Source: Pseudomonadota bacterium
GTDB lineage: Bacteria > Bdellovibrionota_B > Oligoflexia > Oligoflexales > RGVZ01
Assembly (NCBI GenBank): GCA_041178085.1
Contig: JBEGVZ010000075.1
Span: 1 to 60,502, forward strand
Reading direction: 5' to 3'
Length of the DNA: 60,502 nt
Shown here: positions 20,764 through 42,106 of the stretch, one piece after another
Position numbering within the stretch: position 1 is the stretch's first letter
How the letters are laid out: the number at the start of each line of letters is the position of its first letter
Program-made: the position numbers and the translations under genes
Notes under the pieces: model-generated
The model's input: the letters and a program-made list of their open reading frames with translations, nothing else
What the model was told of the DNA's origin: nothing
The model's database searches: none

Positions 20764-21927
20764 TTATTGGACGCGGGAAGTCCGGTAAAGGCGCTTCTCG
20801 CTTGCTGAAAGCTCTTGCCACACCCTCCGTGCGATACGTCCTGCTGCTTTCCCATCGCCAAACGGATTGCCGGCTTGAGCCATTCGCTGGTAACCGTCTG
20901 ACTTTTCATCGGCCAGGACATGCATCACGGTCTGGATCTTTTCCGGGTCAGTACCCGTCAGTACGGCGATCCCGCCTTCGATCGCCTCTGGTCTTTCGGT
21001 GCGGTCGCGCACCAAGATTACAGGTTTTCCCATGGCGGCGGCTTCCTCCTGCAGGCTGCCCCCGTCGGTCACGACAAACTGACAATGGCGGATCAGAAAG
21101 ACCATTTCGGCGAAGGTGATTGGATGGATTACCCGGACGTTCTCCAGGCCGGCAAGGGTCTCCCGGGCGGCGCGCCAAAGGGATGGATGATGTTCCATGG
21201 GCCAAACGATACTGACTTGCGGGTTTTCAAAGGCAAACTGGGCAATGGAGTGGCATATTTGCTGGATGGCGTGCGGGTCTTGATGGTGGGCGTGGATGTT
21301 GACCAGGACTAGCTTGCGGCCACTGAAATGCTCACGCAACCCCGGAAATTCATCCCGCCGCGCGGCAATGGTACAGACGGCGTCCACCGCGGTATTTCCA
21401 GTAACTTCGATGGATTCAGCAGGGATCTGCTCTGCGATCAGGTTTTGTCGCGCCCATGCAGTCGGCGCAAAGTGCAAGGTTGCGCTCAAAGAGATCGTCC
21501 GGCGATTGAATTCTTCGGGCCACGGTGAAGCCAGGTCGCTTGTCCTGAGGCCCGCCTCGATGTGACCCAGGGGAATGTGCATGAAAAAAGTCGCCAGGGC
21601 TGCCGCCAACGAGGCCGACGAATCACCCTGGACCAGGACCATGTCCGGGCGGGCATCCTGGAGTACCTCGCGGAGTCCGGCCAGGGAGGCGGTGGTCAGG
21701 TCAACGAGGGACCGGTGGTCGCTTGTGATTTCCAGTTCGTAGTCGCTGTCCAGTCCGAACAGACCCAGGGTCTGGTCCATGACGCCCAGCGGCCCACCGG
21801 CCACACAGACGACGGAAGCCAGTGCCGGGATCGCCTGGAGCTCGTGGATCACGGGTGCCATCTTGATGGCTTCGGCCCGGTTCCCCAGTATGGAAAGGAC
21901 TGTCTTGGGTTGTCTGGCGCGCTCCAT
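20764..21927 (-). CDS. Non-hydrolysing UDP-GlcNAc 2-epimerase (WecB-like), divergent motifs
   Basis: EAIKMAP, VQGD, HIEAGLR, PWPEEFNR, HFAPT, TGNT.VDA, QEEA, TERPEA, NPFGDGKA. Confidence 0.87.
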   Translation of the reverse strand: MERARQPKTVLSILGNRAEAIKMAPVIHELQAIPALASVVCVAGGPLGVMDQTLGLFGLDSDYELEITSDHRSLVDLTTASLAGLREVLQDARPDMVLVQGDSSASLAAALATFFMHIPLGHIEAGLRTSDLASPWPEEFNRRTISLSATLHFAPTAWARQNLIAEQIPAESIEVTGNTAVDAVCTIAARRDEFPGLREHFSGRKLVLVNIHAHHQDPHAIQQICHSIAQFAFENPQVSIVWPMEHHPSLWRAARETLAGLENVRVIHPITFAEMVFLIRHCQFVVTDGGSLQEEAAAMGKPVILVRDRTERPEAIEGGIAVLTGTDPEKIQTVMHVLADEKSDGYQRMAQAGNPFGDGKAAGRIARRVWQELSASEKRLYRTSRVQ

Positions 21928-21982: not shown

Positions 21983-21999
21983 AGCACAACCTGTGCCAG
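21983..21999 (-). promoter_or_regulatory. sigma54 promoter of the wecB-like/frmA/fghA unit
   Basis: Minus strand CTGGCAC-AGGTT-GTGCT with GG-N10-GC spacing; SD GAGGAG downstream. Confidence 0.7.
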
Positions 22000-22052
22000 C
22001 CTCGGGTGTGGGGAGTGGTCGGAATTAGTGGTGCTCCAGGGGAGGCGTTTCA

Positions 22053-23375
22053 ATGTCCCGGAAGATGATGGTCGACGGCAAACCATTCGACATGGATTCC
22101 CTGTTCGAAGACGAAGTCGAAGAGACAAAGGGCACAAATGCCCCCGGTCAGGAAGCTGCCGTCTCTGAGGAATGGTGGAAGTCCATCAAGCCAGCATCGG
22201 AATCTGTCCGCAGCGTTCGTCCGGGCGAGGCGATTGATGTGACCGTAGCCTCGATTGGTACTGAGAACATCCTTTTTACCGGCGACGGCCTTGAAGGCGT
22301 TATTTCGCGGGACGATTTTTCCGCGGATGAGCTGGCTGCCCTGAAGTCCGGATCGCCGCTGCGCGTTCACGTCGTGACCGCTGCCCGCAAGGGTGAGCGT
22401 TTGTCGATCGAAGCGTCGCGCGAGGCGCGGGTGGCCGCCACGGGCGGTGGCAGCCTTGATGGCCTGCGCGAAGCCCAGGCTGGCGGAGTCCCCGTGTCCG
22501 GTAAGGTAACCGGCGAGAACAAAGGTGGTTTTGAAGTTGCCCTGCAGGGTGCGAAGGGTTTTGTACCGTTCTCCCAGATGGAGCTTGGCACCCGTTTGGC
22601 TTCCGACCAATACATCGGCCAGACCTTCCAGTTCCTGGTAACCCGGGTCGAAGGGCGCAACGTCGTCCTGTCGCGCACGGCACTGCAACGTGAAGAACAG
22701 CAGGCCAATCAAGAAAAGCTTCTCACGAGCATCGAGCCCGGCAAGGTCATGAATGCGACTGTGCGCAAAATCGAGTCGTTTGGCCTGTTTGTGGAGCTGG
22801 GCGCAGGTCTGTCTGCGCTGGTACCCCAAAGTGAGGCTTCGTGGTCCCGCGGCCAGTCGCTGCAATCGCGTTTCTCACCAGGCGAACAAGTTACCGTGAA
22901 AATTCTGAAGGTCGAATCTTTTCAGGGACGTCCGCGTATTTCTGCCAGCATCAAGCAGGCGGATGCAGACCCCTGGGACCAGCTGCCTGATCACGTCAGT
23001 CCTGGCAAGCAAGTGCGGGGTGTCGTCACGCGGATTGCCGAATTCGGCGCTTTTGTTGAGCTATTGCCCGGCGTCGAGGGGCTGATGCACATTTCAGAAA
23101 TGTCTGCCAAGCGTCGTATCCACCGTCCTGGGGAAGTTGTTCAGGCCGGGCAGGAAGTCGATGTGCGCATTCTGGCGGTTGATCGCATCAAGAAACGCAT
23201 CAGCGTCTCGATGAAGGAAGAGGGGGAAGTTTCATCCTCTGCGCGCAGCCCAGGTAAAGCTGCAGGTGCGCCAGTTGGGGCTGAAGATGTCCCGAGCACG
23301 ATCTCCATTCCGGCAAAAACTGGCTCCAGCTCCGGGGCTCTTGCGGCCGCTTTCATCAAAGCCGGAAAAAAATAA
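22053..23375 (+). CDS. S1 RNA-binding domain protein (ribosomal S1 paralogue, about 4 S1 domains)
   Basis: NKGGFEV..GFVPFSQM, FGLFVEL, FGAFVEL.PGVEGLMHISEM; SD GGGGAGG. Confidence 0.87.
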   Translation: MSRKMMVDGKPFDMDSLFEDEVEETKGTNAPGQEAAVSEEWWKSIKPASESVRSVRPGEAIDVTVASIGTENILFTGDGLEGVISRDDFSADELAALKSGSPLRVHVVTAARKGERLSIEASREARVAATGGGSLDGLREAQAGGVPVSGKVTGENKGGFEVALQGAKGFVPFSQMELGTRLASDQYIGQTFQFLVTRVEGRNVVLSRTALQREEQQANQEKLLTSIEPGKVMNATVRKIESFGLFVELGAGLSALVPQSEASWSRGQSLQSRFSPGEQVTVKILKVESFQGRPRISASIKQADADPWDQLPDHVSPGKQVRGVVTRIAEFGAFVELLPGVEGLMHISEMSAKRRIHRPGEVVQAGQEVDVRILAVDRIKKRISVSMKEEGEVSSSARSPGKAAGAPVGAEDVPSTISIPAKTGSSSGALAAAFIKAGKK

Positions 23376-23384
23376 AGCCGACAC

Positions 23385-23400
23385 CGGCACAAGTTTTGCT
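23385..23400 (+). promoter_or_regulatory. sigma54 promoter of the KGG gene
   Basis: CGGCAC-AAGTT-TTGCT with GG-N10-GC spacing. Confidence 0.72.
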
Positions 23401-23465
23401 CCCTGTGTTTGCAAAGGCGCATCAGGCGTCGTGGCAAACATCTGCAGGACAGAGAGGAGCTCAAC

Positions 23466-23786
23466 TTGGAAAAGGAAGTCGACAAGGCTAAGGCCAAAAG
23501 CATGCGCGGGTTTGCATCAATGGATCCGTCAGTCCAGCGCGCAATTGCCCGCAAGGGCGGACGGGCTGCACACCAGAAAGGCACAGCCCACAAATTTACT
23601 TCAGAGGAAGCTCGCCGTGCCGGGCGTAAGGGCGGTGAGATTGTCAGCCGCGATACGGCTCACATGGCCATGATCGGCCGCAAGGGCGGCGAGGCCCGTC
23701 GCGGTCTGGCTGCTCGCCGTAAGGCGGAGGCGCGTAAAAAAGATCAAGAATCAGAGAACCCTGAGCAGATTTCCAAGTCCGCGTAA
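23466..23786 (+). CDS. KGG-repeat general stress protein (YciG/GsiB-like)
   Basis: RGFASMD...IARKGG, FTSEEARRAGRKGG, HMAMIGRKGG; TTG start at 23466 after SD GAGGAG. Confidence 0.9.
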   Translation: MEKEVDKAKAKSMRGFASMDPSVQRAIARKGGRAAHQKGTAHKFTSEEARRAGRKGGEIVSRDTAHMAMIGRKGGEARRGLAARRKAEARKKDQESENPEQISKSA

Positions 23787-23832
23787 TGGGATTGAATCTG
23801 GGTAGCTTGCATCGGCCTTGACTAGCGCAACC

Positions 23833-23876
23833 GGCGGATTTCATCGACCAGGACAACCTGGTCGATGGACTTCGCC
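23833..23876. other. Strong intergenic hairpin without U-tract
   Basis: Perfect 11-bp core CATCGACCAGG-acaa-CCTGGTCGATG (23842-23867), extendable with GGCGGA/TTCGCC. Confidence 0.6.
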
Positions 23877-23991
23877 AGGCAACCGCAATTCTCTAAAACT
23901 GCTCTTCATCCCTGCGCCTGACTTGTGATGCCACTTCATCCCCCGTCCGCCTCTGGCCCATGTGCTTTCTCCTTATAGTAGCTTTTCGTGA

Positions 23992-24007
23992 TGGCACAGC
24001 GGTTGCT
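23992..24007 (+). promoter_or_regulatory. sigma54 promoter of the CBS gene
   Basis: TGGCAC-AGCGG-TTGCT, full consensus; SD AGGAGG downstream. Confidence 0.82.
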
Positions 24008-24057
24008 GGAGCATCTTCGGTTGCACGATCACATCAGCCCCTTCAGGAGGAATCCGC

Positions 24058-24507
24058 ATGCTAAGAGCCAGCCAGGCGATGAGGAAAGACGTCGTATTTG
24101 TGCGCCCCACGAGTTCGATTGCAGAGGCAAGGCGCCTGATGCGGGAATTCAATATCCGGCATGTGCCCGTGATTCATCGGGGTTGTCTTGCGGGAATCGT
24201 TTCAGATGGGGATATTTTGTTGGCATCTTCCTTGCGGAGCGGGCGAATTGATGTGCCTGACGATCCAGTTGAATCGATCATGTCACGCAACGTGGTGTCT
24301 TGTTTTCCCACCAGTCTGATACAGGATGTTGCATCCACAATGATACGACTGCAGATATCCTGTGTGCCCGTGGCAGTGGAAGGCAGGGTGATCGGTATCG
24401 TGACCAGCACGGATATCTTGCGTCTGGTGGCGTCCCAGGCAACGCTTGCTACCGGGATCGGCAACGGGTCGGGTATCGACTTACAGATGGTCCGTCCCGC
24501 CAGTTGA
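24058..24507 (+). CDS. CBS-pair domain protein
   Basis: IRHVPV...GIVSDGDI and VESIM..V...VPV...GIVTSTDIL. Confidence 0.9.
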   Translation: MLRASQAMRKDVVFVRPTSSIAEARRLMREFNIRHVPVIHRGCLAGIVSDGDILLASSLRSGRIDVPDDPVESIMSRNVVSCFPTSLIQDVASTMIRLQISCVPVAVEGRVIGIVTSTDILRLVASQATLATGIGNGSGIDLQMVRPAS

Positions 24508-24716
24508 TTGGATCAGGCTCATCAACCCAACGCGAAGCACGCGGCCTGCGAACGGGCCGCCTCTGCAGTTCTTGGACTCTTTACACATTGGGAAGGGGTT
24601 TCAGTCTGTCCCGGACTGGCTTGATCGTTTGTGGCAGGAAACTGCTGGGGCAGCATCATCTTCATGGTCTGATTAAGGCAGGTAACCATGATGACATATC
24701 GCGTCGCACGAATATG

Positions 24717-26381
24717 TCATGAGCATGAAGTGTGCCAGCAGCGTTGGATTTCGCTCACTAAAGTGAGTCGGTCCACTGGTTTGCTGATGTAGCTGTCGAA
24801 ACCCATCTGCAAATATAGTTCACGGTGTTCTTGCATGGCATGGGCAGTCAGTGCGACGACTTTCACGGGCAGTCCACGTTTGCGAATCTCACCAAGGGCC
24901 GAGAGGCCATCCATGACGGGCATTTCAATGTCCATCAAAACCAAGGGCATTGGGGTCGCCGGTTGTGATTCCTGGATGCCCTCGAGCAGCTCAAGTGCCT
25001 GCTGGCCGTCCTTCGCAACAAAGACATCTGCCCCCCTCAGTTGCAGGATCCGCGTCATCAGCAGGCGATTGTCTTCCGAGTCGTCCACCACCATGATCCG
25101 GTGATCTACGAGGTTTTTTTCCTGGCCTGCCAGGACTCGCTTTTTTCGGTCGCGGCTGTGAAGTGCGTCATCCCTGGTCTGGCTTGCGGATACGTTTCCT
25201 TGGTGACGGAGTGGCAATGACAAAAGGAAAGTCGAACCCGAATCTTCAGTTGTCTCTTCCAAATCGAGTGTTCCACCAAGAAGGCCAGCTAGTTTCCGGG
25301 AAAGATTTAGTCCAAGGCCAGTTCCCCCGGCACCGAGGAGCCTGCCGTGGTGAAGCTGCTCGAAAGGTTGGAACAGGCGGTGTAGCTGTGACTTGTCGAT
25401 GCCAATTCCCGTATCTTTGACGCGGATTTCCAGCATGTCACCGGCTGGCGACTTCCGGATGCAGATACGAATTTCACCCTGCGTCGTGAATTTGATTGCA
25501 TTGGTGATCAGGTTATCCATGATTTGACGAATGCGCGTGCTGTCAGTGGTTATAAACCGAGGTGGGGTTTCCTCGGGTCTGCCAGTACCCAGCTCGGTTA
25601 CCAGGGAAATGCCCTTTTTCTTTGCCTTTATGGTGAATGTTTCCGTGAGTTGCCTGGTGATGTCATTCAGATCCACCAGTTGTTTCTCCACGCTGACTGA
25701 ACCAGCCTCAATCTTTGATAAATCAAGCAGTTCATCAATCAGGTTGAGCATTTGCCGGGCGTTATTGTCGACGATCTGTGAGTAGCGTCTGCGCTCTTTG
25801 TCCGACACAACCTGGTCTTCGAGCAAGCTGGCTGAGGAAATGATTGCGCCAAGGGGGGTGCGTAGCTCATGGGACATGTTCGCCAGAAAGCGGGTCTTTG
25901 AGGCAGATGCGGACTCTGCCTCACGGCAAGCCTTCTCGAGGCCCTTACGGGTTGCGACCAGAAGCGAGATATCGGAAGTGACGCCCACGATATGCGCGAT
26001 TCCCCCGCGCCGCCAGATGATGGTGCAGCGATCCAGCACGTCCTTGTAAACGCCATCGTCAGCGCGAACCCGATAAGAACAATGAATGTTCTTCTGGCCT
26101 GGCTTGATCGAACGAATCGCCTGCTGCACCAGCGGCCGGTCTTCCGGGTGGATTCTTGCCAGCCACCATTCGGGACTGTGGAATTTCAACTTGCGGTTGA
26201 TCCCGATACAGCGATGGTCACCGGCAATGACATAGACTTGGTTGGCCTTGAGGTCCCACCAGAACGCAACCGTCTCGGAGGCGGACGCAATTTCCTCCAC
26301 GATCCCCCAGACCGTACATTTGCGGATGATCCAGGTCATTCGCAGGCGCAATTTGCTGAAAAATTTTTTGATGCCAGGCAT
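24717..26381 (-). CDS. Soluble PAS hybrid histidine kinase (PAS-HisKA-HATPase-REC)
   Basis: IHPEDR PAS; FLANMSHELRTPL; NAIKFT; DTGIGI; GTGLGL; REC VDD..MDI..KP. Start chosen at ATG 26381. Confidence 0.92.
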   Translation of the reverse strand: MPGIKKFFSKLRLRMTWIIRKCTVWGIVEEIASASETVAFWWDLKANQVYVIAGDHRCIGINRKLKFHSPEWWLARIHPEDRPLVQQAIRSIKPGQKNIHCSYRVRADDGVYKDVLDRCTIIWRRGGIAHIVGVTSDISLLVATRKGLEKACREAESASASKTRFLANMSHELRTPLGAIISSASLLEDQVVSDKERRRYSQIVDNNARQMLNLIDELLDLSKIEAGSVSVEKQLVDLNDITRQLTETFTIKAKKKGISLVTELGTGRPEETPPRFITTDSTRIRQIMDNLITNAIKFTTQGEIRICIRKSPAGDMLEIRVKDTGIGIDKSQLHRLFQPFEQLHHGRLLGAGGTGLGLNLSRKLAGLLGGTLDLEETTEDSGSTFLLSLPLRHQGNVSASQTRDDALHSRDRKKRVLAGQEKNLVDHRIMVVDDSEDNRLLMTRILQLRGADVFVAKDGQQALELLEGIQESQPATPMPLVLMDIEMPVMDGLSALGEIRKRGLPVKVVALTAHAMQEHRELYLQMGFDSYISKPVDRLTLVSEIQRCWHTSCS

Positions 26382-26600
26382 GTGTGTATCCCGAAGGGGC
26401 AAAGGGCCAGCGACATATGTCACAGGGCGGTCTGAGGTGCAATTGGCCGGAAACAACTATTTTTAGCGGTTTTTTAGGCCTCCCATGGTGGTTTGTCACC
26501 ATTTCCGTGGTTTTGCGAATGTTCGCTTGTGCGATCCGGTCTGTTGTGGGAGTAGCTGCGTCCTCGTGCTGGCTGGGATTGGTGTCGATGTTTCATCAAT

Positions 26601-26617
26601 CTGGCACCAGGTTTGCT
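26601..26617 (+). promoter_or_regulatory. sigma54 promoter of the Hpt-bEBP operon
   Basis: CTGGCAC-CAGGT-TTGCT, full consensus, ~33 nt before the ATG. Confidence 0.82.
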
Positions 26618-26650
26618 TCCAATCACAGCATTTGGTCAGGGAGAATCAAG

Positions 26651-27049
26651 ATGAAGGCTTTGGAGGCGACCAGAACCGTGACTGACGGCGGGCATGTAGA
26701 GCCCCTCTGGTCGACTTACATGGACGACCCGGTGGTGCGTCCCCTTTTGCCTGCTTTTGCCAAGGCGCTCGATGAACGGGTCAAAAGGATGGGTTTGATG
26801 CTTTCCGCCGGTGATTTCGTCGAACTCGCCCGGCTTGCTCACATGGTTCGGGGGGCTGCTGGCAGTTATGGCTACAGCCAGATTGCCGACTTGGCCGGTG
26901 CGGTTGAGACCGGTGCACGGGCGGGGACCCAGGCGTCAACCATTACGCCCCTGGTGTCGGAGCTTGCAGCCATGGGTGCCGGCGTGAGTGCAGCCGTTGC
27001 TTCGATCGATCCAAATTTTGCTGAATGGAACTCTCTTAACCTGGAATAG
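26651..27049 (+). CDS. Hpt phosphotransfer protein
   Basis: LAHMVRGAAGSYGY..I..LA..VE; SD AGGGAG before ATG 26651. Confidence 0.88.
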   Translation: MKALEATRTVTDGGHVEPLWSTYMDDPVVRPLLPAFAKALDERVKRMGLMLSAGDFVELARLAHMVRGAAGSYGYSQIADLAGAVETGARAGTQASTITPLVSELAAMGAGVSAAVASIDPNFAEWNSLNLE

Positions 27050-27058
27050 GGGGCAGTT

Positions 27059-28519
27059 TTGACGCGTCTTTTGCTTGTCGATGACGATCCTTGCCTTGTG
27101 GAACTTCTGGCCGCCCGTCTGCGCGGCGCAGGATTCGATTGTGACGCTGCAGAGAACCTGCCAGAGATGTTCGAACTGATGCGACGCGGGCGCTACGACG
27201 CCGTCCTGCTGGATGTGCACCTTGGCGAGGAGGATGGCACATCTGCCCTTCCCGTGCTGATGCGTGATCATCCCTTTTCGCGGGTTTTTGTGATGACAGC
27301 CCGTGGTTCTGTCGAGGCCGCTGTCCGGGCGATGGAGCAGGGGGCTGCTTCGTTTCTGGTCAAGGACGGTGAACCTGAATCCATCGTTCGAAAGTTGCGG
27401 TCATTCCTGGTGCCGGAAGGCACCGCCACGGGCACTGCATGTGCTTCAGGGCTGCGCGGCGAGGACTTCGGGTTGATCGGGCACAGTCCCGCCCTGGCCC
27501 GGGTCCTTGAGATGGTTGATATCCTGCGTGATGTCGACTCCCGGGTGCTCATCACAGGTGAAAGCGGGACAGGCAAGGAGGTCGTCGCCAAGGCGCTGCA
27601 TTCGACAAGCAAGCGTGCCAGCAGGCGTTTTGAGGCGATCAACTGCGGCGCGATTCCTGAGAACCTCCTGGAGTCAGAGTTGTTTGGGCACAAACGGGGA
27701 GCTTTCACGGATGCGAAGTCGGATCACAAAGGTTTCTTCGAGACCTGCTCTGAAGGGACGCTGTTCCTGGATGAGATCGGGGAAATGCCTCTTGCGCTGC
27801 AAGTGAAGCTTCTCCGTGTCCTGCAAGAGAGCCGTGTAACTCCAGTGGGCTCCAACCAGTCGATCAAGGTAAACACCCGCGTCATCACAGCTACCAACCG
27901 CAGTCTTGAGGAAGAAGTCAGGGCCGGCAGGTTTCGCGAGGACCTTTTTTACCGGATATCTGTCCTCAAGATCCATTTGCCATCTCTTCGTGAACGTCGG
28001 GACGACATCCCGCTTCTGGTCAATCATTTCCTTGGCATCTACAATGCGCGTTTTAGCAAGTCCGTGGCGGCGCCGACGGGTGAGTTGATGGCACGCCTTT
28101 CTGCCTGGGATTGGCCGGGCAACATCCGCGAGTTGCAAAATGCTGTCGAGCGGGGAGTTGTGTTGTCGCGAGACGGGCAGCTGCACATCGAACACATGCT
28201 CGAGGGTCATGGACTTGATGTCGTCGGTGTGGAACCGGCGGCAGGTTCCTCTGCGTCCACTGCTGCAGCGTTCGTTGACTACCTGGCGATGCCCTTGTCA
28301 GAAGCGAAGGAAAACTTTGAAAAGTATTATTTGCGTGAGTTACTCAAAATCTCCCGGGGCAACATCTCTGAGGCGGCGCGTCTGTGTGGTCGTTACCGCG
28401 CAGATATTTACCGTCTGATGATGAAGTACGGCATGACGCGCGAGGCGATGCTGGCGGAAGATCACAGTGGCATGGAGTTTGCTGGTCAAGATGAAGTCGT
28501 GAAAGGCCGGGGGCATTGA
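27059..28519 (+). CDS. sigma54-dependent response regulator (REC-AAA+-HTH, NtrC family)
   Basis: LLVDDD..LLD; GESGTGKE; GAFTDA; LFLDEIGE; FREDLFYR; WPGNIREL; GNISEAAR HTH. Confidence 0.95.
   Translation: MTRLLLVDDDPCLVELLAARLRGAGFDCDAAENLPEMFELMRRGRYDAVLLDVHLGEEDGTSALPVLMRDHPFSRVFVMTARGSVEAAVRAMEQGAASFLVKDGEPESIVRKLRSFLVPEGTATGTACASGLRGEDFGLIGHSPALARVLEMVDILRDVDSRVLITGESGTGKEVVAKALHSTSKRASRRFEAINCGAIPENLLESELFGHKRGAFTDAKSDHKGFFETCSEGTLFLDEIGEMPLALQVKLLRVLQESRVTPVGSNQSIKVNTRVITATNRSLEEEVRAGRFREDLFYRISVLKIHLPSLRERRDDIPLLVNHFLGIYNARFSKSVAAPTGELMARLSAWDWPGNIRELQNAVERGVVLSRDGQLHIEHMLEGHGLDVVGVEPAAGSSASTAAAFVDYLAMPLSEAKENFEKYYLRELLKISRGNISEAARLCGRYRADIYRLMMKYGMTREAMLAEDHSGMEFAGQDEVVKGRGH
28468..28483 (+). 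promoter_or_regulatory. sigma54 promoter embedded in the 3' end of the bEBP gene
   Basis: TGGCAT-GGAGT-TTGCT with GG-N10-GC spacing, ~75 nt upstream of ATG 28558. Confidence 0.7.
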
Positions 28520-35000: not shown

Positions 35001-35169
35001 GATTGTCGCAGCAGTGCCAGCTGCGCTTACCTTTGGCCCGGGTGCAGAAAGCCGCGCGCCGATGGCAGTTGCCGTGATTGGCGGAGTGCTGGTGTCGACG
35101 GTCATGACCTTGCTGGTAGTGCCCTGTTTCTACAGTTTCTTGCCGGGGCGGCCAGAGACTGTTGAGTGA
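32089..35169 (+). CDS. RND efflux permease (AcrB/MdtB-like, HAE1)
   Basis: MNISEISIRRPV, GIVVDDAIMVLENI, KNSILLVDF, RLRPILMT. Confidence 0.96.
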   Translation: MNISEISIRRPVFAWMLMASLILFGWLGFRQMGISQLPDVDFPVVSISTALEGASPEVMEADVVDLIENAVISVDGITSISSSMRQGSANVSLEFDLDKDLDIAVQEIQTRLAQIQRRLPRDTEVPSVSKSNPEDQPIMWLAVSSDKMSRRELMAFARDQLRSRFLTVPGVADINLGGLVDPAIRVDLTSSDLARYQMTVSDVIGAIRSEHVELPAGRIENSDKELSIRALGEAKSAEEMGALPVARRGGGPVFSNIRLRDLAKVDDGLVDARRRSRAMGAPAVGFGIKKQRGSNAVAVAKAVKARLAEVQKSLPEGMNIGVNFDSTKFIEESIDELNFTLVLSAILTALVCWMFLGSFSATINVILAIPTSIIGSFIVLKALGFTLNLFTLLGLSLAIGIVVDDAIMVLENIVRHREMKKGKVKAALDGSREIGFAALAATIAVVAIFLPVAFMKGLIGKYFFQFGVTISVAVLLSLLEALTLAPMRCSQFLYVGERTTRIGRAVESGFTGLAMVYGKILPWALRHRWWTIGLSIVLFASSLLMIKPLRKEFVPPQDQGSLLIRMKAPEGSSLDYTDRKMAEVEKLIAANADVARYFGSVGGFGGGDVNSAILFVTLKPPRERAVNPELGRRPSQQDYATLMRKQFSELKGMKVFVQDMSLSGFGGRRGYPVEFNLRGPDWQGLTAAVDKVKGVMEASGLVTDVDSDFRGFVDEVHVVPDRQKAALRGVSASDIGETVGALFGGAVAGSFSGGGHRYDIRVRLVSADRSSADDLKKVLLRNNRGELVPLGEVAQIKVEKGLTSITRQDRERAVSVYANLAPKVSQADVIRKLQADISASLPEGYRLVPGGSSESFSEALSGLVFALLLGIAVAYMVLASQFNSFIHPVTVLLALPFSITGALAGLLVTGQSINIYSAIGIILLTGIVKKNSILLVDFTNQRRSEGLGVHKALIEACPTRLRPILMTSFSTIVAAVPAALTFGPGAESRAPMAVAVIGGVLVSTVMTLLVVPCFYSFLPGRPETVE

Positions 35170-35786
35170 CTTGATCCAGCTGAAACAGCCGCGCGGACCA
35201 GGTCGGCCACGGAGTCGGCATTCATCTTGGCCATGATGTTTGCGCGGTGGTTGTCTACGGTGTGAATGCTTATGCCGAGCTCGCGCGCGATCGCCTTGCT
35301 GGCTTTGCCTTCGACGACAAGGTCCAGCACCTCGCGTTCACGTTTTGACAGGCTGGCAATGCGATCGACCTCGGATTTCCGCCGCAACAAGCTATCCCGC
35401 GTCTCTGCATCACGCTGCAGTGCTTTCTGGACCAGAGTCACCAGGTGCTGGCCCTTGAAGGGCTTTTCGATGAAGTCGAATGCACCTGCTTTCATGGCCC
35501 GGACTGCGGACGAAACGTCGGCGTGGCCTGTGACAATGATGACCGGTAGGCTGGCCTGGTTTTTTTTGATCTGATCCAGAATTTCCAAGCCGTCGATGCC
35601 AGGTAGCCGCTTGTCGAGCAGGATGCAGCCGGCGGTCATTTCAGGTAGGCGTTTGATGAACTCGTCCGGGTCAGTGAAACCCTCAGTCGCCAGGTTTACC
35701 GATGCAAGCAACGTACAGACCAGATCGACAAAGGTGGGGTCGTCATCCAGAAGGTAGACTTTTGTTGGCGAAGATGTCTCGCGCAT
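35130..35786 (-). CDS. FixJ/LuxR family response regulator
   Basis: LLDDD, LLDKRLPG, TGHADV, DFIEKP, LSKREREV..HR.NIM.KM. Confidence 0.94.
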   Translation of the reverse strand: MRETSSPTKVYLLDDDPTFVDLVCTLLASVNLATEGFTDPDEFIKRLPEMTAGCILLDKRLPGIDGLEILDQIKKNQASLPVIIVTGHADVSSAVRAMKAGAFDFIEKPFKGQHLVTLVQKALQRDAETRDSLLRRKSEVDRIASLSKREREVLDLVVEGKASKAIARELGISIHTVDNHRANIMAKMNADSVADLVRAAVSAGSSHSTVSGRPGKKL

Positions 35787-35897
35787 AGGTAACCCAATGG
35801 CAAATTTTGTGGATTGGAAATGAATCGTTAAGCCACAAACCGATCCACTAGATAGAGTTTGTCACAAAAAAAAACCAAGTGTTATGGCGGGAAATCA

Positions 35898-37148
35898 CTA
35901 CATTACGCCGCGTTGGGCGTTCATCCGGTCAAGCGCGAGGGAGCAAACCATGTCGCTGGTTGTGTTGACGGCGGACCTCGCTCTCGCCAGCACCCAGTCC
36001 ACGCTGAGCAGCAATGGGAGGAGTTCCATGGGCAGGTGCAGCGTTGACAGAACCAGCGAGAGGGAGACGAATCCTGCTTCCGGCACGCCAGCAACGCCCA
36101 TCGCGGCGACCAGGCATAAACCAGCAAGGGCAATCTGTTGTACCAGGGACAGATCGATGCCACTGGCCGTGGCAACTGCCAGCGCAGTGACTACCTCGTA
36201 CAGGATGATTCCGTCGTTGTTCAGGTTTGTGCCGACACAGGCCGCCAGTGTGGAAGATTTGCGCGACACTTTCAAATTATCCAGTGCTGCGAGGGTCAGA
36301 GGCAAGGTTGCCAGGCTTGAGTTGCATCCAAAGGCGTATGAGACCGGCTTGCGCGCAATTTGCCAGAATGCACCCAGGGATTGACCGCAGAACAGCTTTA
36401 TCCATGCGGAATAAACGAAAAATACGTGGATCATGAACCCGGCCATCACCACGGCAACATAAAAACCAAGTCCAGCAAACCCGGCCAGGCCGCGCTCGCC
36501 AGCAGCTTTGGCGGAAACGCCGAATACGGCCAGCGGCACCAGCCAAACGACCCAAAGGATGCATTTCTCGGCTGTCTTGAGGAGCGCGTGGTTGATTTCG
36601 CTGACTCTGGCAACCGCGTTGGCGGCCTCTTTGGAGCTGTGCGCATGCATCCGCAGGCCAAAGCCTGTGAGCAGTGCCAGGATTACGACCCCCGCGATGT
36701 TTGCGTTCAGGAATGGGTCGATGATGCTTTTGGGCGTGATGTTTTCCAAGGTTTTGCCCAGTTCGATGCTCATTGGGGCTGGTACGCCATTCTTCGCACT
36801 GGTATTCGAATCGGATATACCGGATTCGGCGACTGATTTTGCAAGGGGAGCCAGAGCTGCTCCCGGGTTGAGCGTGGCTTGCAGTGCCAGGCCAATCGCC
36901 AGCGCGAGCACACCATTGATGGTGGTGACAGTCAGGAGGCGCGCAAAGCCCTTGCCATCGACCCCGGCGGACAGGATTGCATCCACAATGGCAAAGAAGA
37001 CGAGCGGCGTGGCGATCGTCTTGACCAGCGTTATGACCGGTTTTCCGGCATCGCCGAGCACGCCTGCTTCGGGGCCCAGAACGAGTCCAGTCAAAATCCC
37101 GACCAGAAGGCTGAACATGATCCACATTGTCAAACCGGGTTTTTTCAC
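35898..37148 (-). CDS. Dicarboxylate/amino acid:cation symporter (second DAACS)
   Basis: NSSLATLP, GTNLNNDG, GVAGVPEAG, DWVLARARSAVN. Confidence 0.9.
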   Translation of the reverse strand: MKKPGLTMWIMFSLLVGILTGLVLGPEAGVLGDAGKPVITLVKTIATPLVFFAIVDAILSAGVDGKGFARLLTVTTINGVLALAIGLALQATLNPGAALAPLAKSVAESGISDSNTSAKNGVPAPMSIELGKTLENITPKSIIDPFLNANIAGVVILALLTGFGLRMHAHSSKEAANAVARVSEINHALLKTAEKCILWVVWLVPLAVFGVSAKAAGERGLAGFAGLGFYVAVVMAGFMIHVFFVYSAWIKLFCGQSLGAFWQIARKPVSYAFGCNSSLATLPLTLAALDNLKVSRKSSTLAACVGTNLNNDGIILYEVVTALAVATASGIDLSLVQQIALAGLCLVAAMGVAGVPEAGFVSLSLVLSTLHLPMELLPLLLSVDWVLARARSAVNTTSDMVCSLALDRMNAQRGVM

Positions 37149-38422
37149 AACGTCTTGTCCGCCATTCGCAATCTTGACTCCAGGTGCCAGGTCAGCACGG
37201 GGACAAGCAGTGAGACAGCCATCGATATCATGGCGACCAGGGGCATTCCGGTCAACTTGCCTTCAGAGTCAGAGGTTAACAGCAGTGAGGAAACGAAGGA
37301 GCCGGTGGCCGAAGCGAAATGTTGCGTGGTCGATTGCAGCGACATGAACGCTCCCCGGTTGTCCTGGCTTGGGACTTGGCTAGAAATCGTGTTGTAGGAG
37401 ATGGCGCGGATCGATGTTCCGGCCATGAAAAAGACTGCAATCAAAACCGGATTAAACCAGTCGGCGTGTCGGTAAAAACCTGTCGTTAGCGTAAAAAGAA
37501 TCAGGATTGTTCCAGCCGCGGAGATACGTGTGGCGCCGTAGCGGTCTGTCAGCCTTCCGGCGATTTGCATCGACAGCAGGCTGGCGATGCCGCCGCACAG
37601 GTAGAGCAAGCCCATGTGGGCTCGCGGGAAGCCCAAATTCTTTTGCACAAAGGCGGCAATGTTCGGGATCACGATGAACCCGCTGAACATGACGCTGGCC
37701 CCGAGCGCCATCGACATATGTGTGGATGCCTGGCGCAAAAGGTGCTGCAGGGCCTGAAGGTTCTGACGGCTGCCCGATACAAGCCTGGCCGCCTTTGCCG
37801 GGGTGGTCGATGGCATCCTTTCCGGGCGCAGCAGTAACCGGATCGCGGCGGTCACAAAGGCCCCCAGGCAACCCACCGCAAAAAACGGTGTGCGCCAGGA
37901 ACCTGCCGCGGCTAGCTCCAGTCCTGCCGGGACACCCAGGATGGAAGCAATTGAAAAGGCGCCCATGACGATACCCAGGGCGCGGCCCCGCTTTCGCACG
38001 GGAATGCAATCTGCCGTCATGGCCAGGGCAAGGGCCGTCGCTGGCCCGCCAAACATTCCGGCAGTCACCCGTGCCGCAAGCAAGGTCGCCAACCCGGTGG
38101 AAATGCCCCCGGCGACTGTAGCGATAGAAAGTCCCGCCAGGGCAGTGGCGAGGGCTTTTTTGCGTGGGAAGCGGTCCAGAAAAAAGGCAGAGACGATTCC
38201 GCTCAGGGCGGCAGCAGCTGTGTAACTACCCCCAATGATTCCGATTTTTGAAGTGGGTATGCCCAGCTCAGCGCTGAAGTCGGGCCCCAAAGGCATAACC
38301 ATCATGAAATCGAGGATGTTGACGAACTGCACCATGGCCAGAAGTAGCACCAGTTTTGTTTCTTCGCTGGTCAGGCGAACTGACGCAGGTGCAGGTCTCT
38401 GCTGTTCAATTTTTGGTCGCAT
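37145..38422 (-). CDS. MFS transporter
   Basis: QFVNILDFMMVMPLGP, motif A (DRFPRKK), GR.TDRYG; about 12 TM segments. Confidence 0.93.
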   Translation of the reverse strand: MRPKIEQQRPAPASVRLTSEETKLVLLLAMVQFVNILDFMMVMPLGPDFSAELGIPTSKIGIIGGSYTAAAALSGIVSAFFLDRFPRKKALATALAGLSIATVAGGISTGLATLLAARVTAGMFGGPATALALAMTADCIPVRKRGRALGIVMGAFSIASILGVPAGLELAAAGSWRTPFFAVGCLGAFVTAAIRLLLRPERMPSTTPAKAARLVSGSRQNLQALQHLLRQASTHMSMALGASVMFSGFIVIPNIAAFVQKNLGFPRAHMGLLYLCGGIASLLSMQIAGRLTDRYGATRISAAGTILILFTLTTGFYRHADWFNPVLIAVFFMAGTSIRAISYNTISSQVPSQDNRGAFMSLQSTTQHFASATGSFVSSLLLTSDSEGKLTGMPLVAMISMAVSLLVPVLTWHLESRLRMADKTL

Positions 38423-38512
38423 GTTGCTCCGGACGCCATGGAAGAGGCAGAGAGAGTGACTCCGGATGCCTGCAACACCTCGGAACTACTGTTGTTATCA
38501 AACTGCTTGGGG

Positions 38513-38529
38513 CTGGCACGTTCGCTGCT
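38513..38529 (+). promoter_or_regulatory. sigma54 promoter driving the putative small RNA
   Basis: CTGGCACG-TTCG-CTGCT with GG-N10-GC spacing; predicted +1 about 38540-38542. Confidence 0.65.
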
Positions 38530-38541
38530 AAATGGGTCCCA

Positions 38542-38661
38542 GGAGTTGACTGGCTGACCACCTTCGCCAGCCGTCATAAGCTGGTGATCCTGCTGATGCT
38601 GCGTTTGTTGTGTACCCCGTGAAAGCTGCCGTTGATCCATCCAAACCAGCCAGTCAGCTCC
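38542..38661 (+). ncRNA. Putative ~120-nt structured small RNA of unknown family
   Basis: 15-bp closing stem GGAGUUGACUGGCUG / CAGCCAGUCAGCUCC and internal 8-bp hairpin; both need a G-U pair that exists only on the + strand; 5' end matches the predicted sigma54 start site. Confidence 0.65.
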
Positions 38662-38681
38662 GTTTCCGTTATTCCCCAAAA

Positions 38682-40061
38682 TCACCCGGCCAGTTTTTGT
38701 GAGCATGCGCGCATCGCGTTCGAAACGGACGCTCGAAGGGCCTCGTGTCCAGCACTCGCGTTTGGCCATACGAGAACCGTTACCAAATCTCCGGCGCCGC
38801 CCGGCAATTTGATGGCCCGGGCCAAAAGCACACTTTCAGAGGTTCTCAATGCGGTCTCGATGGCGGTCCGCGGTTCACCAGGCTCGATCAGGTCGAGGGA
38901 CGCCTTGACTCCGGCATCGTCGTCCGCGGGGATTTGCAGCCAGCCGTCGGATTCCATGACTTCCGGAGCGTAATTGGTGATGGCCTCCATGAGGGAAGGG
39001 GTCATGTCTCCCCGCAACTCGCCAAGCGCAGCGACCGCCACGGACTCTGGACCCGACCAAAGAGCGCCCTCGATGGCGCCGTTTTCTCGCCTTACCGCCA
39101 CGCACCCCGCGTCGATACCCGCCCCAAACAAACTGCCCACCAGCAAGGACAGGGCTGCAGCCGAATTCTCTGCCACAGTCATGTCCATCAATTTCTTGTT
39201 CAGTTCCAAGAGTGCCTTGTTGGCGGCGGCTTCGTTGGCAGCAATTGCCGGAGCGCCTGTGAATTTCGGCGCGAAGGGCTGAGCAGTCGGAGGGGTGGCA
39301 GGTGCTTCTTCAACTGCCGGTCCTGCGTCCGCTGTTGTCTCTGCGGCCAGATCTCCGACGGCCGGTTCCGTCGCGGGATTGGGGGCTGCCTCGGCCGTCG
39401 CCGCGACCCCGGTTTCGGGGCTTGATTCCACTTCGGGGGCGTTTGCCTCCGGGCTTTCCACCGGGGGTATGGTTGCCTCTGCCTCCTCCGGCGCACTAAT
39501 CGGGGCATGGCGGGAAACAGGTTGAACCAGTTGGGCCACCAACTCTTTGGCCCGGTCCTGGCGGCTGCGGCTGGTCTTCAGCGCTGACAAATGTGTGGCC
39601 ATGAACGCCTCAAAAGCAGAGGGTTCAGGCTTGTAGCCCGGGATCAGCCGGGATAGTCCCTGTCGCACCTGCCTCAGGGTCGCGATCAGTGGCTTGATCT
39701 TGTATCCCGTAAAAAATTCCAACTGGTGGAGGGTCGCCCGGTCCAGCGGGTCAATCATCGCGACCGCAAGGATGTTGGAGTCCAGGCGCAGGGGAAGGAC
39801 TTCCAGTTGGCGAAGGAGGGGCGTGTCGATCGCCCCCAGGGCGCGATCATCGATCTCGGAAAAGATGTCCTTGGCGGCTACCCGGTAGTGGGTCCGGTCG
39901 GCAAGGAACGCTGCCAGTTCTTCTTCGTTAAGGAGGCCCAGGGCAAGGATTCCCCGTGCAAATGCACCCGCAGAGTTTCCTGAGGCTTCCTGGATGGTCT
40001 TCCTGTCGCCCTCTGAAAGCAGGCCTTCTGCGACCAGGAGTTGACCCAATTTCGTCGTCAT
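38682..40061 (-). CDS. GspE/PilB N-terminal (MshEN-like) domain protein without ATPase
   Basis: KLGQLLVAEGLL..., VLPL....L.VAM.DP.D....L.F.TG..I.P; Pro/Ala/Glu linker; no Walker A motif. Confidence 0.8.
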   Translation of the reverse strand: MTTKLGQLLVAEGLLSEGDRKTIQEASGNSAGAFARGILALGLLNEEELAAFLADRTHYRVAAKDIFSEIDDRALGAIDTPLLRQLEVLPLRLDSNILAVAMIDPLDRATLHQLEFFTGYKIKPLIATLRQVRQGLSRLIPGYKPEPSAFEAFMATHLSALKTSRSRQDRAKELVAQLVQPVSRHAPISAPEEAEATIPPVESPEANAPEVESSPETGVAATAEAAPNPATEPAVGDLAAETTADAGPAVEEAPATPPTAQPFAPKFTGAPAIAANEAAANKALLELNKKLMDMTVAENSAAALSLLVGSLFGAGIDAGCVAVRRENGAIEGALWSGPESVAVAALGELRGDMTPSLMEAITNYAPEVMESDGWLQIPADDDAGVKASLDLIEPGEPRTAIETALRTSESVLLARAIKLPGGAGDLVTVLVWPNASAGHEALRASVSNAMRACSQKLAG

Positions 40062-40211
40062 CCGGGCTCCGTGAAATAGCTGAAAATTTGGCTTGGTTTT
40101 ATGTTACCACAGCTTCTAATATGACGGGGCATGGACGCATTGGACTCCCGGGATCCTGAGGATCTCACGGCGTCCCAGACCACTGGATCTCTTTTAATCG
40201 GCAGGTTGCAC

Positions 40212-40979
40212 ATGACGGAAATCAAAAAAGCAGAGCTCAAGGGACCGGACGCCTTTCAGGCGCGGATATTTATCGCGATCAACTGGTTGGTTGCCAACAA
40301 GCGGCAGGTTGGGCTGTTCCTTCTCCCACTGGTGGTGGTTGCGGTCGCGGGCTTTACCTGGCAGGCGGTGTCGGGTCACTTGAAAAACCGGCGCATGGCA
40401 GATCTGGCTGGCATTGAGGAGAAGTACGCCAAGGAAACCGAGGAAGCTTTCAAAAAAGCCGACCCGGCGTCCGCTGGCAAGGTGACCCCAGACCACTCAG
40501 CTTCTCTGGCGTCCTACCTTGATTTTGCAAAGAAACACCCTGGGAATGAAGAGGGTTGGACTGCAGGATTACGCGCCGCCAATATCCTGCTCGACAAGGA
40601 AGCCCCTGAACACGAGTCCGCGCGGAAACAGATCGAAGCGGTGGTTGCCAAGTCCACGGCTTCGCGCTTCCACCAGATCCTCGGACGTTTCATGCTGTTG
40701 GCGGTTTTGGAAGATACAAAGCAGTATGACGAGGCCCTGAAACACGCGGCGGCCCTGTCCGGCATCCTTGATGCAGAGCAGCCCCGCAAGTCGGAAGGCA
40801 AATCCCCCCTGGTCACGGAAATCAAACCCCGCCTGCTGTTGAGCAAGGCGCGTATCGAGCTGGCCAAGAACTCCAAAGATGATGCCCGGGCAACGCTCAA
40901 CTCGATCATCAAAGACCACGGATTCTCTGAAGAGGCGGCGACAGCGCGCGCAATGTTGACCATGGCGGCAGCGAATTGA
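40212..40979 (+). CDS. YfgM-like single-TM TPR protein
   Basis: ELKGPDAFQ lead-in, one TM segment, TPR-like helices; directly upstream of the BamB-like gene as in yfgM-bamB. Confidence 0.75.
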   Translation: MTEIKKAELKGPDAFQARIFIAINWLVANKRQVGLFLLPLVVVAVAGFTWQAVSGHLKNRRMADLAGIEEKYAKETEEAFKKADPASAGKVTPDHSASLASYLDFAKKHPGNEEGWTAGLRAANILLDKEAPEHESARKQIEAVVAKSTASRFHQILGRFMLLAVLEDTKQYDEALKHAAALSGILDAEQPRKSEGKSPLVTEIKPRLLLSKARIELAKNSKDDARATLNSIIKDHGFSEEAATARAMLTMAAAN

Positions 40980-42106
40980 TGTCCAGGCGATGTCTTCACA
41001 CAGCGGTCTTGGCAATTGGCCTGTATGCATGCGCTGGTTCTGGTCTGGCGGCGACCACTTCGCCCAGCAGGCCATTTCGTCTTGGCAGCATGCGCCTGAT
41101 GCCGGAAGTGGACGCAACCAAGCCGGTGGGTTTGGCGCTCCGTTCCGGTTTCAGCGTTCAGGGGGACACCCTGATCGGGGACTGGGGTGAAGGCTGGGTG
41201 GGAGCACGATCTTCCCGCTCCAAGAGGTTCTCCTGGTGGTTCAATGCGGGTGCGGAAGTTAGCAGCCCGGTATTCAACGCCGGCGGCTTCATTGTGTTCA
41301 GCACCCGCGCAGGAAAAGTATTCAAGCTGGATATTGCGACCGGAAAACGCGCATGGGAAGCCACCCTCGACTCCTTCAGCGATCGCAAACCGCTGGTGTC
41401 CGGGTCGACGGTAATCGTCCAGGCGGCATCGCAAGTCATCTATGCCCTCGACTATCAGACAGGCAAGAGTCTGTGGCTTTACGACGCCGGTTTTCCCGAA
41501 GGTTTGACGGTCAGCGGTGGACCAACACCCGTGGTCTGGGCGGATTCCCTGATTGCGGGATTGGCGAACGGCGATCTAGTCGGCATCAACCTGCAGTCAG
41601 GCAAGCAGGCATGGCGCGTGAGTGCTCCGGTGAGCGAGGCCAGGTTCCATGATGTGGTCGGTGAGCTTTTTGTGCGTGATGGCCAGTTATTCGCCGCGCG
41701 CTACGACGGGACTGTGACGGCTTTTGATGTCAAGGACGCCAAGGGTGGCGAACCACGGGTCATCTGGCAAGAGAAGTTCCCCGGTATCTCTGTGGTAACC
41801 CACCGCAACGGCAAGATGTTCCTTGGCTGCGTGAACGGGGACGTGGTCGCGCTTGACGAGATGAACCAGGGACGGCAGGTCTGGCGTGCTGCCAACGGTG
41901 GCAGCGTGACCACACTTACTGCCGCGGAATCGCGCTTGATCGCGTCAACGTCCGACGGACGAATTTTTACCATGGACCTGCAGACAGGCGAGCTGCTCTG
42001 GCACGATTCGTTGGGATACAGCGTCATGGCGGCGCCGCTGTTCATCGATGACGGCATCTATTTCATCACGGGTCTTGGCAACGCTTACGGGTACCGACTT
42101 CTTTAG
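40979..42106 (+). CDS. bamB: PQQ-repeat beta-propeller lipoprotein, BamB-like
   Basis: Lipobox LYAC; repeated ALD..TGK..W blades; RF.DV motif; synteny with the yfgM-like gene. Confidence 0.75.
   Translation: MSRRCLHTAVLAIGLYACAGSGLAATTSPSRPFRLGSMRLMPEVDATKPVGLALRSGFSVQGDTLIGDWGEGWVGARSSRSKRFSWWFNAGAEVSSPVFNAGGFIVFSTRAGKVFKLDIATGKRAWEATLDSFSDRKPLVSGSTVIVQAASQVIYALDYQTGKSLWLYDAGFPEGLTVSGGPTPVVWADSLIAGLANGDLVGINLQSGKQAWRVSAPVSEARFHDVVGELFVRDGQLFAARYDGTVTAFDVKDAKGGEPRVIWQEKFPGISVVTHRNGKMFLGCVNGDVVALDEMNQGRQVWRAANGGSVTTLTAAESRLIASTSDGRIFTMDLQTGELLWHDSLGYSVMAAPLFIDDGIYFITGLGNAYGYRLL

Follow-up and report, generated by a model that had tools for sequence, protein, structure and literature searches.

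Comparative sequence evidence for a previously uncatalogued sigma-54 RNA family of a known kind in Oligoflexales

The DNA analyzed here, referred to as the window, is the whole stretch of 60,502 nucleotides (nt) at positions 1 to 60,502 of contig JBEGVZ010000075.1 (forward strand; GenBank assembly GCA_041178085.1), from a Pseudomonadota bacterium assigned by GTDB to Bdellovibrionota_B, Oligoflexia, Oligoflexales, RGVZ01. The element in question is a predicted structured RNA gene with a sigma-54 promoter, located on the plus strand in a gap of 259 base pairs (bp; 38423-38681) between two minus-strand open reading frames (ORFs). On one side lies an MFS transporter gene (37145-38422, minus strand; Pfam PF07690), divergent from the RNA, and on the other a gene for a 459-aa MshEN-domain protein (38682-40061, minus strand; Pfam PF05157), convergent with it. 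A sigma-54 (-24/-12) promoter box, CTGGCACGTTCGCTGCT, occupies 38513-38529 on the plus strand (GG at 38515-16, GC at 38527-28), and its spacing to the -12 GC predicts a transcription start at ∼38540. The RNA body, as delimited by covariance-model matches on the plus strand, extends over 38540-38668 (135.1, 126.8 and 107.4 bits for the successive models R1, R2 and R3), and the whole RNA would be roughly 125-140 nt long. From fold and complementarity, a closing helix is predicted to join a 15-nt 5′ arm (38542-38556) to a 3′ arm (38647-38661) that is 93% complementary to it, with 90 nt between the arms; all of its positions are Watson-Crick pairs except one, which is U-G on the plus strand. The arms enclose an unpaired linker, ACCACCU (38557-38563; invariant in congeners, with a family consensus of CCAC-A/C-UU), an inner 8-bp hairpin with a variable loop (38564-38587, in which 38564-38571 pairs with 38580-38587 and includes one G-U pair), and a central unpaired pyrimidine-rich loop of 59 nt (38588-38646) that carries the motifs CYGYUG, CCGUUG and GCU(C/G)C. 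An initial annotation made from the letters of the window had described the gap between two minus-strand genes, the 15-bp end-to-end stem and the 8-bp hairpin, and all were confirmed at the positions it gave.

The plus-strand RNA folds at -45.9 kcal/mol (z = -4.55; equaled by 0 of 200 shuffles), vs -44 kcal/mol for the minus strand (z = -2.42; 3 of 200 shuffles), and the sequence features exceed chance. A GUUUCCGUU tail follows the helix; it is not a U-run terminator and is not conserved. The only terminator-like match in a simple scan, at 38385-38402, is upstream of the RNA.

The window's own 3.0-Mb assembly contains a single copy of the element. By BLAST, the gap aligned in five of six congeners, whereas 34 more distant genomes gave no alignment; the part that could be aligned (gap positions 91-238, window 38513-38660) begins precisely at the promoter box and ends with the 3′ arm. 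The congeners that have the RNA share its flanking genes, and homologues are thus found in the same intergenic position, where the initial annotation had proposed to look for them. Dispersed copies of the arms, which it had named as a sign of a miniature inverted-repeat transposable element (MITE) or repetitive extragenic palindrome (REP), were not seen in the genome, and one copy in the window's genome and one or two elsewhere speak against such elements. In the sole congener without the RNA (G002, our genome label), the MshEN-domain gene was not found either with this query, suggesting that the entire locus is lacking from that genome or from its assembly. A genome from a family that lacks the RNA (G022) has the MshEN-domain gene, with no RNA or box after it.

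To extend the family, three successive covariance models (R1, R2 and R3) were built from the RNA body with the promoter excluded. R1 matched in 7 of 95 genomes of the order, R2 in 16 of 131 genomes of the class and R3 in at least 37 of the 95 genomes of the order; no match was found in the 36 genomes of the phylum's other orders, the phylum-level search covering the same 131 genomes as the class-level one. By family, labeled f1 to f15 as in the R3 search output, matches were found in all 12 genomes of f13, 10 of 22 of f15, 9 of 21 of f1 (the window's own family, its own genome excluded), the single genomes of f6, f7, f10 and f11 (1/1 each) and 1 of 2 of f3, and in none of those of f12 (0/16), f5 (0/4), f4 (0/3) or f2 (0/3). 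This distribution is a lower bound, because the filtered search missed at least one copy: at locus L302 (G087:C79, ∼1637-1760), a promoter box and the upstream palindrome described below precede a copy of the RNA (…GAAAGUUGGCUGAGCUGUCC…), in a genome scored negative. Pattern scans were of low yield, with 4 true loci among 79 from metagenomes and, for a loose pattern on genome contigs, a model match in 1 of 80 scanned loci (L080, in a congener) of 119 stretches found. Some genomes carry two copies, either in tandem, each with its own box (G066, L231), or on separate contigs (G061, G068).

Covariation, which the initial annotation had suggested examining, is strong. The 38 copies in alignment A7 have standard pairs in 94.5% of cells (70.3% in shuffles), and 23 of 24 base pairs are changed on both sides, although these pairing counts are somewhat inflated, since alignments A4 to A7 were fitted to the model structure and the sequences are related. 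None of 500 shuffles reached any observed pairing measure, and sliding the 3′ partners by 1 to 3 columns cut pairing to 20-42%. All 16 pairs of the closing helix are changed on both sides (95.5% of cells paired), as are seven of eight in the inner hairpin; the first, unfitted MAFFT alignment of six congeners held five compensated pairs. Across the 38 copies there are 67 G-U cells vs 9 A-C cells, at least one G-U pair being present in 36 copies, and this excess means that the reverse strand would pair in only 87.8% of cells vs 94.5%. The argument of the initial annotation that G-U pairs favor the plus strand therefore holds family-wide. Copies from beyond the window's genus show, by eye, one more small hairpin between the box and the closing helix; it has compensating changes and fits transcription from the box. 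The element is non-coding: congeners differ by 1-nt insertions or deletions at three alignment columns, and the only AUG in the window copy is AAG in two congeners. A resemblance of the hairpin loop, CGUCAUAA, to that of Met-tRNA, drawn in the initial annotation, did not survive comparison, as the loop is not conserved: among relatives it may be AUUCAAAAC or another sequence, from 3 to ∼45 nt long.

The plus-strand box predicted in the initial annotation is invariant in five congeners, and its equivalent, TGGCAY-N5-NNGC, occurs within 100 nt upstream of all 38 copies with an invariant -24/-12 and a variable spacer (background: 135 matches in the 1.56 Mb of loci examined). From box start to model start is 26-27 nt in the window's genus and 41-73 nt elsewhere. 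The pattern TGGCAYNNNNNNTGCW has six matches in the window vs 0.87 expected. A stricter box pattern has 13 intergenic matches in the window's genome, of which 11 lie 1-57 nt before an ORF start, and the box of the RNA is one of only two without an ORF start within 60 nt; the second orphan (C47:19711) is at the start of tuf, has no structured RNA after it and is probably a chance match. No sigma-70-like promoter was detected in 38300-38900 by a simple scan. The genome encodes rpoN (contig C85), as do 92 of the 95 genomes of the order, and has six strong Sigma54_activat matches. Five more sigma-54-type boxes are present in the window, starting at 21983 (minus strand), 23992 (plus), 24722 (minus), 26602 (plus) and 28468 (plus); they cluster (21983-28483) around a hybrid histidine kinase gene (24717-26456) and an NtrC/GlrR-like activator gene (27059-28519), and one of them precedes a UDP-GlcNAc 2-epimerase gene (20764-21927).

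A palindrome, (C)TGTC-N9-GACA(G), was noticed on reading the regions upstream of the copies and, because its discovery was post hoc, it was tested across the order. Strict TGTC-N9-GACA is found upstream of 16 of the 38 copies, equivalent to 16 of the 29 outside the window's genus (background of 0.013 per 200 nt), and starts 120-124 nt before the box in 12 of these 16. Order-wide, TGTC-N9-GACA followed by 90-120 nt and a box gave 79 matches in 48 of 95 genomes (reversed control: 10), and the N10 version gave 10 matches in 10 of 95 genomes (reversed control: 2). Fifteen of the 79 N9 matches are directly upstream of covariance-model matches; others precede predicted lipoprotein genes, two of them in the window's genome (C115:6626-7780 and C119:10845-11711, neither with a Pfam or NCBIfam match). 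The palindrome is likely an activator site, and its distance from the box fits, on these sequence comparisons, the geometry of a sigma-54 activator enhancer, which would place the RNA in a small regulon. Given that lipoprotein genes have the same palindrome-plus-promoter layout, the RNA is likely to belong to the regulon of one activator, and that regulon is testable through the order-wide matches, many of which stand ahead of lipoprotein genes. The layout, with the palindrome ∼105 nt before the box, was also observed at C115:7812-7946 and C119:11734-11865 of the window's genome (G000) and at loci L278, L286, L289, L290, L297 and L298; in many genomes of the order it precedes predicted lipoprotein or exported-protein genes of no known family, a candidate one-activator regulon. 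Between palindrome and promoter, ∼25-45 nt before the box, a conserved TTAAC(C/T)C-N2-3-(C/T)TGA(A/T)AT was observed at L028, L149-L151 and L152-L155; in some copies it matches by eye the reverse of the IHF consensus WATCARNNNNTTR, as that consensus is given in PMC3045617.

The central loop is 50-66 nt long across the family and ∼70% pyrimidine (U 35%, C 35%, G 15%, A 15%), with nearly every G sitting in a YUG word. Compared with mononucleotide shuffles, YUGYUG occurs 76 times vs 2.8 (in 36 of 38 copies), GUUG 77 times vs 5.6, and CCGUUG in 30 of 38 copies vs 0.7, values that overstate independence because the sequences are related and the shuffles are mononucleotide ones. We infer that the conserved functional surface is the unpaired interior, namely the linker CCAC(A/C)UU together with the pyrimidine-rich loop. 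No Hfq family match was found in the window's genome (96% complete). A role as a CsrA sponge was rejected: a CsrA gene is present, but GGAG is absent from the loop in all 38 copies and there are no GGA-type sites. A run UGUUGUGUUGUUGUUGCUGCUGUGCUGUUG that resembles the YUG-repeat loop was seen in a single case, after the box in the 5′ leader of a lipoprotein gene driven by sigma-54 (L278, G056:C33), from a family that does not have the RNA.

On the comparative evidence, the element belongs to a real, previously uncatalogued sigma-54 RNA family of a known kind. Comparison among copies demonstrates, at the level of sequence, the gene together with its strand, fold and promoter and, outside the window's genus, a likely enhancer, and it lends support to the core proposal of the initial annotation, that the plus strand carries an unannotated RNA gene of a new family under sigma-54 control. 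Rfam 15 gave no match for the window (E up to 10) or for 11 distant loci (E up to 1), in keeping with the novelty that had been proposed. That the element is an RNA gene transcribed by sigma-54 RNA polymerase is very probable, and the best explanation overall, which we hold to be probable with some reserve, is a sigma-54-driven structured RNA regulator that acts in trans and independently of Hfq. Under this explanation, sigma-54 RNA polymerase would transcribe the plus strand from ∼38540, mostly (outside the window's genus) with an activator bound at TGTC-N9-GACA ∼121 nt upstream of the box. A helix of 15-16 bp would join the RNA ends and enclose the conserved linker, the variable hairpin and an open loop of 50-66 nt. 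The RNA would then act in trans without Hfq, its open pyrimidine-rich loop pairing with purine-rich mRNA leaders or ribosome-binding sites. If the element is indeed a sigma-54 RNA gene, pairing with mRNA seems to us about evenly poised between right and wrong, sequestration of a protein a lesser possibility, and a cis or antisense role rather improbable.

Several points weigh against this explanation, beginning with the inflation of the pairing counts noted above. Transcription, the 3′ end and the trans-acting mode are what we infer from the comparisons, and a look for RNA sequencing runs containing this DNA gave none. Four sequencing runs compared with the stretch gave DNA-like contigs that span the neighboring genes, without starts or ends. 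A simple scan of the window detected no intrinsic terminator after the helix, and an end-to-end helix with no recognizable terminator raises the question of how the RNA is terminated or processed. Within the window's genus, the strict palindrome is present in none of nine copies and a core match in two of nine; the weak candidate enhancer at 38369-38385 (GGTC-N9-GACG), which lies within the MFS ORF, 128 nt ahead of the box, is doubtful, matching only in the core GTC-N9-GAC and not being conserved in the other eight copies of the genus. In 12 other genomes, no activator gene was found closer than 10 kb to the RNA, which leaves the NtrC/GlrR-like regulator at 27059-28519 only a candidate. Anti-Shine-Dalgarno-like words had been highlighted in the initial annotation; CUCC, a word of this kind, is modestly enriched, with weak statistical support (48 occurrences vs 30.9 in mononucleotide shuffles), and in the window and one whole family the central motif is GCUGC, not GCUCC. 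Target prediction, another of the proposed checks, was carried out in the window's genome by a crude pairing computation: the loop paired with 2,534 start regions at -22.7 kcal/mol vs -23.4 kcal/mol for coding controls, giving no start-region enrichment. Two individual targets fared no better. Pairing with the MshEN start region was notable in the window's genome only and not in four others, and against the glmS upstream region the loop did not outperform its shuffled versions, 36% of which gave an equally good duplex. As the duplex computation is crude on long partners, these target negatives are weak. Codons 6-10 of the MshEN gene (GGUCAACUCCUGG, window 40030-40061, minus strand) are complementary to the 5′ arm of the RNA (38541-38552) in this genome only; the complementarity is not conserved in four other genomes and is probably due to chance.

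A different use of the same loop would be as a protein-binding decoy, in which the YUG-YUG/CCGUUG words titrate a single-stranded-RNA-binding protein, as in GlmY-RapZ or CrcZ-Hfq/Crc. We consider this possible though doubtful. The repetition of YUGYUG and GUUG far above composition is what such a decoy would show, and the failure of start-region pairing to exceed controls is also in its favor, as are the two copies in some genomes, which recall GlmY and GlmZ, and a RapZ-family gene directly after rpoN in the window's genome. The start of that gene is ∼45 nt beyond the rpoN segment for the sigma-54 DNA-binding domain (C85:5972-6953), and the adjacency of rpoN and rapZ is known from Proteobacteria. 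The promoter layout resembles that of glmY/glmZ in PMC3045617, but the palindrome spacing is N9, with N10 at background level. The binding protein, moreover, is only hypothetical, RapZ homologues being widespread and not known to bind such motifs, and neither a pairing signal in the glmS leader nor a match to the Rfam GlmY and GlmZ models was obtained. A fuller version by analogy, and an improbable one, is an independently evolved GlmY/GlmZ-like circuit of Oligoflexia-type bacteria, in which a response regulator acting on TGTC-N9-GACA would switch on exported lipoprotein genes and the RNA, and the YUG loop would decoy an RNA-binding adaptor such as the RapZ homologue encoded next to rpoN. If true, it would link envelope or surface signaling to translation or mRNA decay without Hfq.

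The neighborhoods of the RNA bear on a second alternative, action in cis, either by transcription into the convergent MshEN gene (antisense or collision) or as a leader or attenuator of the co-oriented operon found in f13. The MshEN-domain gene is the conserved neighbor: congeners, L231 and three genomes of another family all have an orthologue that converges on the RNA. Both f15 and the window's family show this convergent layout, in which a TPR_21 (YfgM-like) gene and bamB follow the MshEN gene and the RNA end is within ∼10-20 nt of the MshEN stop codon; in f13, an operon of peptidase-C39-like, RimK-like and GCS2 genes begins ∼80-100 nt downstream on the strand of the RNA. This proximity, together with the lack of a terminator in the simple scan, would suit a cis role, but the downstream partner changes between lineages while the fold and loop motifs of the RNA stay conserved, tandem copies each have their own promoter, and terminator-like hairpins were seen by eye after the RNA in several f13 members. 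An antisense role, furthermore, would not need a conserved 16-bp closing helix and hairpin, and we regard action in cis as unlikely. The commonest layout outside the window's genus, seen in 11 examined loci, places a P-loop gene of the mrp/apbC type (PF10609) upstream of the RNA on its strand. The position of the MshEN gene beside the TPR_21 (YfgM-like) gene and bamB is kept across two families, and its product has a conserved N-terminus (…LG.LLV.EG.L.E.DR…; window 38682-42106, L263, L264, L273) and a length that varies from 459 to ∼1,237 aa via a low-complexity middle region. On the other side of the RNA, the MFS gene, a sodium:dicarboxylate symporter gene (4-nt overlap with MFS) and a LuxR-type response-regulator gene run in one direction, divergent from the RNA (35130-38422).

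A minus-strand element, serving the MFS gene as its 5′ leader or the MshEN mRNA as its 3′ end or terminator, would be in line with the orientation of both flanking genes and with the folding of the reverse complement (-44 kcal/mol, z = -2.42), but it is very unlikely: on that strand the G-U pairs would become A-C mismatches and paired cells fall to 87.8% from 94.5%, the sigma-54 box points the opposite way in all 38 copies, the MFS gene adjoins the RNA in the window's genus only, and on the minus strand the helix has no U-run after it. A feature of the DNA itself or of a known class (MITE/REP, Y RNA, tRNA-like element, 6S RNA or small protein-coding gene) is hardly credible, for although the inverted repeat looks superficially like the ends of a MITE, the end-to-end stem is reminiscent of Y RNAs and the window copy has an 8-codon AUG…UGA frame, there are one or two copies per genome, no Rfam match and a hairpin loop that is not conserved, the AUG is AAG in two congeners with 1-nt insertions or deletions breaking any frame, and the Y RNA idea (YrlA type), raised in the initial annotation, fails because no TROVE/Ro60 gene was found (no PF05731 match in the genome, control genomes having matched).

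To our knowledge, RNA-based regulation in Oligoflexia and Bdellovibrio-like bacteria is almost unknown, and most members are uncultured. At the level of search listings, no sigma-54 small RNA from Bdellovibrio or Oligoflexia was found in the literature. Comprising 38 sequences, with covariation at 23 of 24 pairs and a promoter that is defined, the family is ready for submission to Rfam. It joins a growing number of sigma-54 small RNAs that are clade-specific and have pyrimidine-rich loops, a pattern suggestive of a common plan in which promoters that need an enhancer, and stay silent before activation, drive RNA regulators with tight switching. Among known systems, the Vibrio Qrr1-5 RNAs (sigma-54, LuxO, Hfq) are sigma-54-dependent trans-acting small RNAs, as would be the case here, and likewise vary in copy number between species. 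Qrr RNAs depend on Hfq and have four stem-loops, one of them a terminator, and luxO is the neighbor of qrr1; in contrast, the present family has no Hfq gene found, no terminator detected, no adjacent activator gene and no Rfam match.

GlmY and GlmZ of Enterobacteriaceae form a system with sigma-54, GlrK/GlrR, IHF and RapZ. The promoters of glmY and glmZ are, in PMC3045617, sigma-54 promoters with TGTC-N10-GACA sites for GlrR, and with IHF. The family resembles them in having a sigma-54 promoter with a TGTC…GACA palindrome, in some members with an IHF-like box (by eye) between the two, and in the sibling copies of some genomes and the RapZ-family gene beside rpoN. It differs in palindrome spacing (N9 rather than N10, with 79 vs 10 matches across the order) and in having one site, not three, as well as in its fold, the absence of an Rfam match and the absence of glmS leader pairing.

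In logic, the nearest analogue is Pxr, of Myxococcus xanthus and other Cystobacterineae. As described in PMC5568312, Pxr has a predicted sigma-54 promoter, a length of ∼100-130 nt and a distribution limited to an order-level clade; it is mostly single-copy, with tandem paralogues under their own sigma-54 promoters in a few species, and consists of three consecutive stem-loops, always just downstream of the activator gene nla19. Unlike Pxr as so described, the present RNA is closed by a long helix around an open loop and has no activator gene within 10 kb (12 genomes); no sequence or Rfam relationship was found between them, the presence of a Pxr model in Rfam being unchecked. The two are alike in a length of ∼100-130 nt, a predicted sigma-54 promoter, restriction to one order-level clade of a formerly “delta-proteobacterial” group, a single copy in most species and, in a few, tandem copies with their own promoters (here G066 and L231).

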